Shown: in pieces, positions 7,855-45,919 of the stretch | Layout: every line of letters starts with the position of its first letter | Numbering within the stretch: the stretch's first letter is position 1 | Assembly (NCBI RefSeq): GCF_006345805.1 | Contig: NC_043025.1 | Span: forward strand, 2,480,001-2,544,000 | DNA length: 64,000 nucleotides | Direction of reading: 5' to 3' | Source of the DNA: Octopus sinensis | Taxonomy: Eukaryota | Notes under the pieces: generated by a model | Told to the model about the DNA's origin: nothing | Seen by the model: only the letters and a program-made list of their open reading frames with translations | Databases searched by the model: none | Translations under genes and position numbers: made by a program

Positions 7855-7926
7855 ATTCCTCAGTTTTAATCAGATCGCAACCATCCAACAAGGATCCTTT
7901 CAAAACCTTCAAAGTTTAGTTGAAAT
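7855..7926 (+). CDS. Internal 72-bp exon encoding one typical extracellular-type LRR: FLSFNQIATIQQGSFQNLQSLVE(I)
   Basis: Acceptor gttttatttttcag, donor gtaagt, 72 nt, phase 2-2, no stop; fits xLxxNxIxxIxxxxFxxLxxLxxL. Confidence 0.88.
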
Positions 7927-9289
7927 GTAAGTTGCTAAAGTTTTTTGATATTATTTTATTTACGAAATTTTTCTAGGAACTTGATGTCTTCTCATCTTCC
8001 TTTTTCTCTCTCTATCTCTAACTAATGTTCTGCTACTATTTCCATGTAAGACTGTGTATGAATGTGTCTATGAAATGTTTGTGTCTCTATGTGTCTCCAT
8101 AAATGTCTAACATTTTGTGTATGAGTGTACGATTGCACGTGAATATGTATGTTTGCATTTGTGTCTATAGGTGGGTATATTATGAAATATATATTTATGC
8201 AGAGTTATACTCACTTCAAGAAAAGAAAGTATAGAAATATATTCATCCTCACTCTTTTGAGATACTGATTCAATAATGAGTTATTTTAAACTCTACAATT
8301 ACATGACCTGCTGAAGTTGGTAGTCGTCATTTTCTATTTGTACAGTGAGCTACAGCTGGGGCAATTATGTCAAACTGTCCAGTGTGATGGCTGCATATGC
8401 CGTTTCAATTTCTTTAGGAAGGATGTTAGTGTAGTCAGTCGTCCACAACATAAAACAACGTTTGGTGTGTCCCTCGTACGTTTGTGTCTGCGTGTATGTC
8501 TGATAATTTTACTTATGTTGATATATTTTTATTATCATTTCTATCCTCATTCCCAAATTTTCTTGTTATTGTTTTGCTTGTCCATCTTGTCTGTTTTTTG
8601 CTACTTATATTACTTTTTCTTCAACACCGACTTCTTCGTTGTTATTGTTTTGTTGTTGTTGTTGTTCTTCTTCTTCTTCTTCTTCTTCTTCTTCTTCTGC
8701 GCCTCCTCCACCTGCTCCTCCTCCTCCTTCTTTTTCTTCTTCTTCTTCTCCTTATTCTTCTTCTTCTTTTTCTTCATCTTCTTCGTACTAAAATTATTAT
8801 TATTATTATTATTATTATTATTATTATTATTATTATTATTATTATTATTATTATTATTAAATAACGAAATACATTATAATCGAACCAAGTGAAACTGAGT
8901 TTATTGAGCAGAGTACTTTTAAAATGTCAACTGATGAGAAACATCTGCAAGGAAGATGCACCGCGGCCAATCGACCATTATCTCATCCGTGAGGGGCCGA
9001 TTGAAGACGGGTTGAAACAGCAGTAATGATTAATGTATCAAGTAAAATCCATTTTCCATTTCTGTCATACGTGTGTGTGTGTGTGTGTGTATTGTGTATG
9101 TGTGTGTGTTTGTGTGTGCATACGCTTAGGCGTTGGCTTGGCTGTGTGATAAGAATTTTGCTTCTGTATTCAGTCCCTCTGCGCGTACTCTGCACTCCAA
9201 CCGAACAAACCCGTGTATGTTAATTAATTGGGTTCACGGTAACTGAAAGAAACCCGTCGTATATATAAATTTTCTAAACGAGCTATGTT

Positions 9290-9680
9290 TAATAAAAGTA
9301 ACTCATGTTACCTGAGCAATAATGCAACTGCCCCAGCTTTTCTGACACTTTCCGAAATCCGCCCTGGACTTAGTTTCCATAGGCGAGTCGAGGACCTCTT
9401 GACTTCGACAATGATGATAAGTTTGCTCTTAATCTCGACCTCTGAGCTGATTTTTCATCTTGAAAACGGATGCATGTCAGCAGGTGGTAAATCTGGCGAA
9501 TAGGGCTGATGCGGACGCAGTTGCATGTTGTTTTTGGCAAGAAACTTGCGAGTGAGGTGATAGGTGCATTTTTGTCGTGAAAAATTCAATACTTCGCGAA
9601 TCCAGATCCAGTCATTTTCCCCAAACGTCCTCCCTGAATAATCTCCCAATGCACACTACCGAGGATGTCGGAAAAATATG
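9290..9680 (-). mobile_element. Mariner transposase C-terminal remnant
   Basis: HQPYSPDLPPADMHPF resembles the mariner HPPYSPDLAPSD motif (ORF 9455-9649). Confidence 0.75.
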
Positions 9681-9844
9681 ATGAACTTGCTCTTTATTAA
9701 GCTGTGATTTATTCGTGCGCCCATACACTCGAAACATTACGTACGACCCACTGTCGTAGAGTAATGTTTCGAGTTGTAAGGTACCCCACGAGTGGAATTA
9801 TATATGAAAGAAGGTTTGAAAATGCAATGTTAAAAAATATGTAT

Positions 9845-9889
9845 TTACTTGACCGGTTTCACTTATTTAAAAAGAATTGTCAAAAGCAA
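9845..9889 (-). ncRNA. Minimal hammerhead motif, U3-A8 variant (degenerate stem II)
   Basis: Minus strand ttgctt-TTGACAA-ttctttttaaataagt-GAAA-ccgg-TC-aagtaa. Confidence 0.5.
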
Positions 9890-42720: not shown

Positions 42721-44673
42721 TCTTTATCTATACACTGTTCAGTCAAGTTTTGTAATTTGCTTATCTCATAAGCACAGCTTTGGAACAACGATCAAATAAC
42801 CGTAAACTGCGAATTTCTATTTCGCCGTAGCAGAAGCACAACCAACGGCAGAATGTATGAGAAGCAGTAACATCAACCGGGATCTTGTTGAGATGGAATT
42901 TACTGTGTATCCACCATTATTTTAATTGAAATATATATATTTTAATTATAGTGTATATATTTCTTAATTGTAATATATATATATAAACACCTTACATATG
43001 ACACTGTAAATAAGTGTGAATATTTAACAGAATTGCAGTTATGAGCATGCGTTAAGTCAAAGGTGGTATAAAATACTTAGTTCAATTGAAGTTACTTTGC
43101 ATTATGCATCACCATTACCACTTCCACCACAACCACTACCACCGTCTCTCACTCCCCTTTCTCTCATTTTCTCAGTTGATCTATCTATCATTTTATCTAC
43201 GTATCTGCCTTCCTTTAATCTCACCATCAGAACATCACCGCTCTGCTAAAATTATATTCGTAACCTTCCTCAATATCACTACCTTCAACTAACTTTTTCA
43301 TCACGTAATAAATATTACGTTCCCCCTACCACATGTCCTCTCCCACTTTTTCTCCCTCGCTCTTTTTTCTCTCCCCTTTTCTCCCTCTCCCTCTCTTTCT
43401 GCTCCACTATTTGACTTACTTTCGTTTTCTCATTCCTTTTTCTTTCTCTTGGTTTCTCTTTCCATTCAACTAATCACGTGAAAACATTACAGTCACGTTC
43501 CTTCTACCTCAGGTCATGGACATTTCTCTTTCGCTCTTTTTCGTTCTCCCTCTTTTTCTCTAATCACGAGAAAGCGTTACCGACGGAGTAATTAACATAA
43601 TGACAAGCAGAATTATTATAAGATCAGAAATATTATATTCAAGTTTTCTTCATGACAGACTCCTTCGTTTCCTCCTTATTTTTTACATCATTCTTTTCTT
43701 CAGCTCCTACATTTTCTGCCATTTCTCTTATTGTTGTTTTAATGTTGATGCTGTTGTTGTTGCTTATCATCATCATCAGCATCATCATCATCATCATATT
43801 CTTCTTCTTCTTCTTCTTCTTCTTCTTCTCTTCTACTACTACTACTACTACTACTACTACTACTACTACTACTACTAATAATAATAATAATAATAATAAT
43901 AATAATAATAATACAACTACTACTACTACTACTACTACTACTACTACCACTACTACTGCTGTTGCTGCTGCTTCATCGTTGTTTCCTTTTTCGGCCTATT
44001 CTTCATCATCAACTTTCTCTTATGTTAGTCATCTTCTTCATAATAAGATCACGATATGTCATCCAATGTCATTTCCACAAACTAAATGTCTCTCTTATCT
44101 TCTTTATTTACCCTCATTCTTATACAATTCATATTGTCTTGCAATTTATGTTTGCCTGTGTGTAATAAAGTGGGAATATATTTGTTGCCTGGAAGTGAGT
44201 GTGTGCGTTTATACATCAGGGTTTGATAATGTATATATAGGTGGATGTGTGTATGTACACAGACACACACACACACATAAACACACACACACACACACAC
44301 ACACACACACACACACACACACACACACACACATATATATATATATATATATATATATATATTCTTGTATTTAGGAATGGTCATATTGCCAGTTTTGCCA
44401 ATAAAAACTCACGCACTATATATTTGGTGTTACTTTGATTCATCTTTATTTATTTTTGAGGTTAATCTTAATCTTCTTTCGAACGTATATAAACAGGAGA
44501 TACAAATATTACAGGCACTCCCTCCCATAGACACACACACTTTAACTAAATATAGACACATATTGAGGTATACTCAGGCGCAAATTAAGACATATCCGAT
44601 AGAAATACAAAATACAAAATGGCTGACCGTTAGTAAGAAGAGACACACAAATATAAATGAAGAAAGCAATAAA

Positions 44674-44713
44674 CCACTGATGAGGTCACAGGAGCGTGAC
44701 GAAAGAACTCTGG
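44674..44713 (+). ncRNA. Minimal hammerhead motif (identical to 6467-6506)
   Basis: cca-CTGATGA-ggtcacaggagcgtgac-GAAA-gaac-TC-tgg within the duplicated Penelope-like remnant at about 44360-44880. Confidence 0.65.
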
Positions 44714-45847
44714 CCGAAATAAGAGTAAGATTAATGTAAAAAATAAATAACGCTGAAGCAAAGTAACACCAAATATATAGTGCGTGTGTTTTTTATTGGC
44801 TAAACTGGCAATATGACCATTCCGAAATACAACAAATATCTGTTTCAACACACGATTTCACATCAAAATTCTTGCAAAACAAATACATAAACGTGTATAT
44901 ATATATATATATATATGTTTGCGTTTGTTTGATGTGTGACTATAGTTTTTGTATTTATATTCCTTTATTCCCACTTGTTTCCCCATTCTGATATTCCACG
45001 TTATTTTTCTCGTCTTAATATATCTTCTTTTCCTGCATTTATCGTCTTCATCACAACTTTTTCTCTACATTCATCTTGTTCATCATATTCTGGTTCTTCT
45101 GCTTTTAAAGTTTTTCAACTGCTTTCTCCTCTTTTCATGAATCATATTTGCTTCTTCTTCTTCTTCTTCTTCTTCTTCTTCTTCTTCTTCTTCTTCTTCT
45201 TCTTCTTCTTCTTCTTCTTCTTCTTCTTCTTCTATTTTTCTATATCTATAATTCTATGATTTATTTTCCTTCACCTTCTTCGTTATTCTTATCAATTTCT
45301 AATTTTTCATCACATCTTTCATCATCATTATGGTCATCATCTTCATCATCGTCATCATCATCATCATCGTCGTCATCATCATCATCATCATCATCATCAT
45401 CATCAGTATCATCTTCAGCGCTATCATATTCATACTCCTTCTGCTAATCATATTTTCGTATTCACTAATCGTTATAAATTATCATGTCATCATAACTATT
45501 TCCTTCCCTCATTTACTCTGCTATTTCTAGCATGCAGAATCACCATCACCTTCGTTATGTACCTCATAATAATCAACGTCGTCATCACCAATTAATCGGT
45601 AGCGTTTGTCATCCTTTTCGATAATAATCATCATCATTATCCCCCTTTTCCTTCTCACCGTCATTATTACAACACTTACGATCAACATTGCAATCCTCCT
45701 TCTCATCATCATCATCATCAACATCATTTCGGCGATTCTCTCCTTCACCGTCCTCTTTTTATTAATATCATTCTAAAGATACAAGATTTAATATTTTATA
45801 AGAAATCTTTTTAATACTTTTCTTTTGAACTGTGTTTTATTTTTCAG

Positions 45848-45919
45848 ATATCTCCATGAGAATAAGATCACAACCATCTCACAAGGAGCCTTTCAAAACG
45901 TTCCAAGGTTAGGGAAAAT
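45848..45919 (+). CDS. Internal 72-bp LRR exon, paralog of 7855-7926: YLHENKITTISQGAFQNVPRLGK(I)
   Basis: Same acceptor gttttatttttcag and donor gtaagt, 72 nt, phase 2-2, open frame, LRR consensus retained. Confidence 0.88.

Follow-up and report, generated by a model that had tools for sequence, protein, structure and literature searches.

Vertebrate GPR126 (ADGRG6) has a SEA-HormR-GAIN-7TM architecture, and the ADGRA receptors (GPR124/125) carry N-terminal LRRs. To our knowledge, vertebrate ADGRG6/GPR126 and ADGRA are conserved single genes that lack arrays of hypervariable repeats. The Octopus paralogs described below share the database name ADGRG6-like. An expansion of adhesion GPCRs has been reported in octopus, and its group 3 shows branch-level positive selection with no BEB-selected site in the part of the report available (Ritschard et al. 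2019, PMC6408891). According to the same text, the main sites of expression of the octopus group are the axial nerve cord, the suckers and the skin in O. bimaculoides and the gills in C. minor.

As described in the available portions of the respective papers, the ROCO type I genes of the brown alga Ectocarpus encode one 24-residue LRR per 72-nt exon, with positive selection on exposed residues, variable repeat number and inactivated exons (Zambounis et al., PMC3341825), and agnathan VLR genes are built somatically from cassettes into a signal peptide, LRRNT, variable 24-residue LRRs, a fixed terminal LRR and LRRCT, with variability on the concave surface (PMC3900441). Arthropod Dscam is a surface receptor with interchangeable exons in tandem arrays, its Ig exons being mutually exclusive; the accessible text of the review concerned gives FREPs as the molluscan and Dscam as the arthropod example, and no diversified cephalopod recognition receptor (PMC13428168). 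The octopus adhesion-GPCR expansion and the brown-algal one-LRR-per-exon arrays are already known separately, and their combination was not found in the literature searched.

Here we describe a family of LRR exons represented twice in a window of 64,000 nt of Octopus sinensis DNA. It resembles the Ectocarpus genes in devoting one 72-nt exon to each LRR, in positive selection on exposed residues, and in variable repeat number and inactivated exons. In contrast to the algal LRR-GTPases, it is an animal family with extracellular LRRs on a GPCR-family scaffold and with introns of 5-49 kb. It shares with VLRs the order of domains from signal peptide to LRRCT and a concave face that is hypervariable within a conserved framework of 24-residue LRRs. 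It is no VLR, because its modules are germline exons with intact splice sites that lie between LRRNT and LRRCT exons and are spliced together, and it extends further into Ly6-like, SEA-like, GAIN and 7TM domains. Mutually exclusive splicing of the Dscam type was rejected because contigs presumed to be RNA join array exons directly, although exon skipping could still occur. With group 3 of the octopus expansion it has in common adhesion GPCRs with GPS and 7TM, tandem clustering, the presence of LRRs (in 5 of 22 group 3 sequences) and positive selection (at branch level in group 3). The family may correspond to group 3; hypervariable one-LRR-per-exon arrays, by contrast, are not reported in the available part of PMC6408891.

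Results

Two LRR exons within a tandem duplication

Both window exons (Table 1) are preceded by a CAG acceptor and followed by a GTAAGT donor, and a scan for LRR-like exons of 66-216 nt detected no further family exon in the window. Our recount agrees with the preliminary description of this pair: they differ at 18 of 72 nt and at 12 of 23 full codons, with all 12 changes being nonsynonymous and no codon differing only synonymously. The five strand codons named there hold 10 of the 18 changes (11 if codon 6 is added), and changes between modules 1 and 2 are enriched in the six codons (Fisher p=1.5e-4). The flanks, described as near-identical, show 6 substitutions over 408 aligned nt (1.5%) and one indel. 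Module 2 is identical at 14 of 21 residues to a variable-type LRR that the O. vulgaris protein model P0164 joins to a 7TM domain.

It had been overlooked that the two exons lie within a tandem segmental duplication with a unit of about 38 kb. The units diverge by 6.7% over 15,087 aligned nt, and 91% of unit pairs are alignable within 250 nt 5' of the exon. Measured against the unit-wide rate, divergence is lower in the exon flanks (binomial p=5e-7) and higher in the exon (p=1e-6), these being p-values that ignore rate variation, with the lowest 300-nt windows elsewhere in the unit at 2.0%. Assembly collapse, which had been raised as a possible cause of the flank identity, is excluded because the units diverge this much and carry private insertions. 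Outside the window, the minus-strand exons C29:2317467 and 2264849, possible counterparts of the intact exons expected on the non-coding strand of an Ectocarpus-type gene, are located past an assembly gap at 2334430.

Table 1. Positions of LRR modules, their flanks and the duplicated units in the window
Feature	Position	Strand	Remarks
Duplicated unit 1 (exon + intron DNA)	1..18509	+	6.7% substitutions vs unit 2
Module 1 upstream flank and acceptor	7740..7854	+	conserved
LRR module 1, 72-nt phase-2 exon	7855..7926	+	one 24-residue LRR; open frame, canonical splice sites
Module 1 donor and downstream flank	7927..8220	+	conserved; 5 substitutions vs module 2
Predicted intron between modules 1 and 2	7927..45847	+	37,921 nt, transposon-rich
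Duplicated unit 2	37854..59828	+	tandem copy of unit 1
Module 2 upstream flank and acceptor	45735..45847	+	conserved
LRR module 2, 72-nt phase-2 exon	45848..45919	+	one LRR; next exon of module 1's array
Module 2 donor and downstream flank	45920..46213	+	0.6% from contig C3514

A genome-wide exon family under diversifying selection

All 30 loci chosen by flank similarity alone proved to be intact. The genome contains at least 50 such 72-nt phase-2 exons, 45 of them distinct and all open, in arrays of up to 15. As every one of the 50 begins with A and ends in AT or TT, they can be joined in frame in any order, and the split codon then always encodes Ile or Leu. No stop was observed in the 45 exons, against about 9.9 expected from position-wise base frequencies (a rough estimate). 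One truncated copy was found at C29:2558904. The closest database protein (P0111) fuses two such exons under a kinase name, and automated annotation misses the family. Word-based protein searches with the exon frame or the signal-peptide exon gave nothing useful.

Entropy reached 1.9-3.4 bits at codons 22, 23, 1, 3, 4 and 6, compared with 0-0.7 at framework codons. For the six binding-face codons, ML omega was 11.3 on the flank tree (p=5e-13), 13.3 on the combined tree (p=6e-14) and 6.2 on the exon-only tree (p=4e-10), as estimated by a simple codon model with fixed kappa and bearing in mind that recombination inflates tree-based omega. Their synonymous rate was 0.5-1.0, versus a nonsynonymous rate of 2.9-11.1. 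The remaining 17 codons had an omega of 1.4 that was not significant (p 0.13-0.15), and off-strand codons 8, 11 and 14 also exceeded 1 in site-by-site scoring. Among nine pairs with 2-4% flank divergence, 47.5% of the six-codon positions were already different. Diversifying selection on the LRR beta-strand face, proposed from two exons, is upheld across the 45 distinct paralogs, and we conclude with high confidence that these LRR exon modules are under diversifying selection. Binding-face residues far outpace the surrounding DNA in change, as is typical of recognition proteins engaged in an arms race.

Splicing and exchange between modules

Contigs from runs X1 and X2 join such exons head to tail; that these runs are RNA is a guess, their reads were compared with a sister locus, and a given junction may match more than one pair of exons. 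One contig junction fits genomic neighbour exons at 20/20 nt, and a run-X2 junction fits the end of module 1 plus the start of module 2 at 18/19 nt, not uniquely. Other junctions match no exon pair of the collected set exactly (17/20, 7/8). None of the listed runs holding the window stretch is recorded as RNA. Splicing is seen for exons of this kind in presumed-RNA contigs, and the window's own exons are matched non-uniquely.

The upstream flank of module 2 is closer to module 1 than to C3514, otherwise its nearest copy, and is possibly a short conversion or exchange tract, judging from sequence comparison. Neither formal recombination test was informative: a PHI-like test did not reach significance (p=0.93), and the four-gamete incompatibility of 0.28 fell short of the 0.36-0.47 obtained in clonal simulations. 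The earlier suggestion of exon-centred exchange has partial support, with one short tract apparent and no support from either test.

Sister genes possess an adhesion-GPCR architecture

The sister genes are laid out as signal peptide–LRRNT–LRRs–LRRCT–Ly6-like–SEA-like–HormR–GAIN/GPS–7TM. At C29:9038759-9121240, three variable exons are followed, in this order, by terminal LRR, LRRCT, Ly6-like, SEA-like, HormR, GAIN, GPS and 7TM exons; this sister gene at 9.0-9.1 Mb contains two one-base frameshifts. A run of 15 variable exons at C29:3034309-2881893 begins after a signal-peptide/LRRNT exon and has no assembly gap, and in the sister gene signal-peptide/LRRNT, 15 LRR, LRRCT, Ly6-like and SEA-like exons are collinear and gap-free. 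The nearest complete sister (minus strand) lacks GAIN/GPS/7TM exons, and at least one family member without GAIN-7TM exons may be a soluble form. GPS scored above cut-off at C29:9107964, 1475876 and 2802739 and at C9912:72917, 3' of family LRRCT exons. Pfam detected 7tm_2 in P0160, P0162 and P0164 and in exons at C29:9.11-9.12 Mb; on P0160, LRR_8, GPS and 7tm_2 were above cut-off, and HRM and GAIN below. The Ly6 match is weak (E=0.01, below cut-off), and the SEA-like assignment is a secondary-structure pattern in a mid-confidence part of the model.

The P0160 model has a pLDDT of about 85-94 over residues 1-60, and its predicted strand falls on the exon-junction residues. Consistent with the placement originally proposed, the variable residues lie around the concave beta-strand in this paralog model. 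The P0160 region matches the folds of Nogo receptor 2 (Z 16.0, rmsd 2.1, 123 aligned) and a hagfish VLR (Z 14.5), in a fold search listing that covers residues 1-130. As confidence is low past residue 120, Ly6, SEA and GAIN are unconfirmed by the fold search. For P0035, single-sequence modelling gave a poor structure beyond the repeats (mean pLDDT 54.7).

A Toll-like receptor was rejected because full-length paralogs carry 7tm_2 and no TIR in Pfam, a result at family level with the window's 3' end unseen. An LGR/GRL101 rhodopsin-type LRR GPCR was rejected on account of GPS and 7tm_2 in paralogs. The family is an LRR-bearing adhesion GPCR instead of a VLR, TLR or NLR. A 69-bp array 5' of a sister gene is a minisatellite adjoining a helicase-like ORF and not an LRR.

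The search for further domains thus succeeded in sister genes (signal peptide, LRRNT, LRRCT and 7TM), and C29:2280001-2664000, 384 kb comprising the window's array and three assembly gaps, yielded no exon for a signal peptide, LRRCT, GAIN or 7TM. In this assembly, the 7TM exons of the family thus have no physical linkage to the window's exons. Each 38-kb unit is accordingly not a whole gene. Because its own terminal exons were not found, we infer the affiliation of the window's gene, which probably belongs to the LRR-bearing adhesion-GPCR family.

Discussion

With moderate confidence, we interpret the window exons as consecutive LRR-solenoid modules of an octopus adhesion-GPCR-family receptor that is germline-diversified for recognition. 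The array would gain and lose modules by unequal crossing-over of exon-plus-intron units, a presumed mechanism behind the observed duplications, and short gene conversions among modules, glimpsed in part here, would reshuffle 5', middle and 3' blocks. Selection would retain new binding-face residues and purge stops. Placed at a body surface or on blood cells, the receptor would bind fast-changing ligands, most probably molecules of microbes or parasites, and would signal through its GAIN/GPS and 7TM domain. For a host-pathogen (immune) role, we regard the case as evenly balanced.

The same modular receptor might instead serve non-immune recognition, namely neuronal or arm self-recognition, chemotactile sensing by sucker and skin, or gamete recognition. 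Its closest folds include Nogo receptors and the NGL and LRRTM adhesion proteins. However, saturation of the binding-face codons at 2-4% flank divergence implies ongoing turnover, which by our reasoning suits an arms race over a stable wiring code, and gills and skin are also barrier tissues; we consider non-immune recognition rather unlikely. Improbable, in our judgment, is a combinatorial system in which every cell or individual would acquire an LRR string of its own through exon skipping or somatic conversion, by a logic like that of Dscam or VLRs. Any order of the 50 exons is indeed compatible in frame and residue, a more distant O. sinensis paralog has six annotated isoforms that vary by entire 24-residue repeats, and run-contig junctions occur without an exact exon-pair match. 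Yet the junction with the best fit corresponds to genomic neighbours, the isoforms come from automated modelling of near-identical exons, and unmatched junctions may stem from other individuals or species or from uncollected copies.

Relaxed or dead exons in which mutation is locally concentrated, involving no selection for binding, would account for the truncated copy, the frameshifts in one sister gene and an omega elsewhere in the exon that is not well below 1. Such decay is very improbable given the excess of nonsynonymous over synonymous rate in the six codons, the lack of stops where about 10 were expected, almost invariant framework residues and the spliced joints in presumed-RNA contigs. 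An assembly artefact of collapsed or duplicated haplotypes can be practically dismissed: several small-contig copies match one another exactly or nearly so and could be haplotigs, and strand flips coincide with the gap at C29:2334430, but the divergent window units with private insertions contain zero N and one gap-free stretch carries 15 distinct exons.

Beyond the germline-diversified receptor that we favour, these modules could, speculatively and with little likelihood, belong to an unrecognised octopus variable-receptor system of adhesion GPCRs and soluble versions, whose LRR solenoid draws on a stock of hypervariable, interchangeable exons; conversion would recombine these between individuals, and exon skipping or somatic exchange would do so inside a single animal. 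If true, such a system would couple a binding repertoire like that of VLRs directly to G-protein signalling. Conservation is the rule among adhesion GPCRs, and one lineage here has a VLR-like, fast-diversifying binding surface. The family is a concrete candidate for a diversified cephalopod receptor, for immunity or for neural/arm self-recognition.

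Divergent exons within a duplicated unit

Both exons of the preliminary description are present in the window with canonical splice sites (see table). They differ at 18 of 72 nt, and all 12 of the 23 codons that differ replace a residue, as first counted. Their flanks are indeed near-identical, with a 1.5% difference over the 408 nt adjoining the exons against 25% within the exon. Self-comparison revealed a large unit present twice in the window, in copies about 38 kb apart that differ by 6.7% over 15,087 aligned nt. Against a uniform rate, both flank similarity and exon divergence are significant (p = 5e-7 and 1e-6), and some 300-nt windows elsewhere in the units are nearly as alike as the flanks (2.0%). 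The proposed concentration of changes in strand codons was borne out, with six binding-face codons holding 11 of the 18 differences (p = 1.5e-4).

Repeats also occur within the intron. A ~546-bp unit is repeated in tandem about 4.7 times (99.2-99.8% identity) at window 26275-28850, and another contig, C3514, carries a related stretch (~87%) as an insertion upstream of its exon. LINE-like endonuclease and reverse-transcriptase fragments at window 13245-16700 (-) are common to both units.

An exon family and its splicing

Searching the octopus's own genome with the exon and its flanks, as had been suggested, returned at least 40 matches (40 of 55 candidates scored), and an intact open 72-nt exon lay between AG and GT in 30 of 30 loci from this search. 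A protein search of the genome gave 76 matches from 78 candidates, more distant LRRs among them. From retrieved regions and loci we gathered 50 exon copies, intact splice sites being a selection criterion for those from our own scan; removal of five identical duplicates ahead of statistics left 45 distinct at both DNA and protein level. The first base is A in 50 of 50 exons and the last bases are AT (28) or TT (22), which makes the split codon Ile or Leu throughout and keeps the frame in any order. The next unit downstream of the window holds a truncated copy (C29:2558904) in which the acceptor and the exon's 5' half are missing.

Location of variable LRR exon arrays and of the minus-strand sister gene
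Feature	Location	Strand	Description
Window exon 1	window 7855-7926	+	72-nt LRR exon
Window exon 2	window 45848-45919	+	72-nt LRR exon
Window's array	C29	+	seven intact exons, spacing 28-49 kb, six on one gap-free contig
Minus-strand array	C29	-	15 exons, median spacing 10.4 kb, gap-free
Third cluster of family exons	C29, 9.04-9.23 Mb
Sister: signal peptide + LRRNT	C29:3034309	-
Sister: variable LRR exons	C29	-	the 15 exons of the minus-strand array, after signal peptide/LRRNT
Sister: fixed terminal LRR	C29:2876586	-
Sister: LRRCT	C29:2862882	-
Sister: cysteine-rich Ly6-like region, SEA-like region, HormR	C29	-	after LRRCT

On contig C18, two identical variable exons lie 38 kb apart at 17293148 and 17331209. 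Upstream of both is a close signal-peptide exon (17344931); its first intron and that of the minus-strand sister are 92-97% alike.

For transcripts, 4 of 24 listed runs, presumed RNA, were aligned to a sister locus of 10 kb that contains two exons. Contigs from two runs (X1 and X2) join exon end to exon start without the intron, one joint skipping 5,629 nt; the expected splicing is seen at a sister locus and in presumed RNA. Five junction strings were compared with the exon collection. One agrees with genomic neighbours at 20/20, and a second agrees at 18/19 with a joint from the end of window exon 1 to the start of window exon 2, a score that other pairs tie; the remainder are an 8-mer with a full fit and two strings at 17/20 and 7/8. 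A more distant O. sinensis paralog has six annotated isoforms, all automated models, that differ by whole repeats.

Probable membership in the adhesion-GPCR family

The sister-gene layout was obtained by mapping Octopus proteins onto retrieved genomic DNA. After HormR, the minus-strand gene (C29:3034309-2826606) continues with another SEA-like set followed by its last exon, and it contains no assembly gap. This mapping gave no match to GAIN, GPS or 7TM in it, and the gene is possibly a secreted form or an internal deletion. At C29:9038759-9121240, where all but 3 kb of one intron was covered, variable exons lead into the entire series, GPS and 7TM included; the gene is complete except for two one-base frameshifts (9094316 and 9119346), which may be sequencing errors or decay. 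A compact paralog (C29:2768101-2817575) matches the database protein P0160, named 'adhesion GPCR G6-like [Octopus sinensis]', in which LRR_8, GPS and 7tm_2 exceed the cut-off and HRM and GAIN fall short of it. A variable-type LRR is also joined to 7TM in an O. vulgaris model, P0164.

The 384 kb surrounding the window yielded no terminal exon of the window's gene, and we therefore assigned this gene to the adhesion-GPCR family by homology. With haplotigs counted, the wider family comprises 64-66 LRRNT-exon, 56 LRRCT-exon and 75 GPS matches in the genome. Because no more than 3 LRRNT and 4 LRRCT exons reach 82% identity to those of the minus-strand sister, the variable subfamily would number roughly four or five genes. 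One of these LRRCT exons begins just past a gap at C29:1433089, with GPS downstream, and could be an orphan 3' end.

Identical signal-peptide/LRRNT exons occur on opposite strands about 1 Mb apart (C29:2166452 (+) and 3148644 (-)) and likewise at C29:1869140 and 2061298; such pairs are either inverted duplications or misplaced haplotigs. A 12.7-kb array of a 69-bp minisatellite (C29:3036131-3048816), adjoining a helicase-like ORF, sits 1.8 kb upstream of the minus-strand sister's first coding exon, and a similar repeat occurs near C29:2641492 and 2647186.

A profile search covered 1.84 billion representative proteins. The 20 top matches looked up include amphioxus, Mytilus and Octopus proteins, and among them an O. 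vulgaris model has the repeats closest to the window family. By eye, P0006, P0035 and P0031 (listed under Octopus), P0042 and P0010 (Mytilus), and P0003 and P0005 (Branchiostoma) combine variable strand residues with a homogenised framework, each its own; this pattern suggests independent variable arrays in other octopus subfamilies, mussels and amphioxus.

Selection on the binding face

The variable positions in the motif LxxLxLxxNxI are exon codons 22, 23, 1, 3, 4 and 6, picked from the LRR motif, yet after the alignment had been seen. Across 45 exons these carry 6-14 residues per position (1.9-3.4 bits) against 1-4 at framework positions, and the six-residue signature is distinct in 43 of the 45. 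On three fixed trees a codon model, following the earlier proposal of site-wise dN/dS, gave omega values, which recombination may inflate, of 11.3, 13.3 and 6.2 for the six codons (p = 5e-13, 6e-14 and 4e-10), 1.4 for the remaining 17 codons (not significant) and 0.7-0.8 for eight framework codons. When sites are scored singly, omega is above 1 at codons 8, 11 and 14 as well, indicating that selection or toggling extends beyond the strand. Two tree-free checks agree with the codon model. In nine pairs (of 990) with 2-4% flank divergence, the six codons differ at 47.5% of positions and other exon codons at 8%, and the 45 exons hold no stop against about 10 expected.

Structure modelling, also proposed earlier, placed a beta-strand of P0160 over the exon junction, from an exon's final residue through the split codon to the first residue of the next. 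In a fold search, the LRR part of the model matches Nogo receptor 2 and hagfish VLR; the concave surface is described as the variable, ligand-binding face in VLRs (passages of PMC3900441 and PMC3341825).

Probable exchange between modules

In pairwise comparisons of 23 units, the sequence immediately before the exon can be aligned in 91% of pairs and that immediately after it in 78%, against at most 20% past ~1.6 kb; homology is therefore centred on the exon. C3514 differs from window unit 2 by mostly 0-4% per 250 nt over ~8 kb and is either its allele or a recent duplicate. Between the two exons there are 5 nt differences, of which 4 are non-synonymous. The window exon equals array member C29:2382671 at 4 of these 5 sites, and the codon at position 18 is common only to these two (2 of 45 exons); one mismatch to 2382671 falls within the shared tract. 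Three blocks of the exon (5', middle and 3') show no correlation with one another (r -0.10 to 0.06), and upstream and downstream flanks are correlated (r 0.33). The suggested exon-targeted exchange thus draws support from the short tract and the uncorrelated blocks but not from a PHI-like test (p = 0.93) or from four-gamete incompatibility, which was not above clonal simulation. Gene conversion between modules is likely, though not proven.

Known systems and possible role

The available part of PMC6408891 describes an octopus-specific adhesion-GPCR expansion with LRRs in 5 of 22 sequences and reports no selected site there, the sites of expression being nerve cord, suckers, skin or gills; its Table S3 may list genes of the window's family. 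Brown-algal ROCO genes have the same exon design as the octopus modules (in the portion of PMC3341825 available). Full-text searches of the literature, subscription papers aside, turned up no description of arrays of hypervariable LRR exons in adhesion GPCRs, cephalopod or otherwise. We regard the octopus arrays as real.

Modular exons, tandem duplication, selection, splicing and family architecture were all observed here. Unequal crossing-over would alter repeat number, and gene conversion would reshuffle exon blocks. We give a host-pathogen role of the receptor about an even chance, and a non-immune recognition role ranks next. Combinatorial or somatic diversification of the modules seems improbable. 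The LRR solenoid would bind a fast-changing ligand and signal via its 7TM domain.
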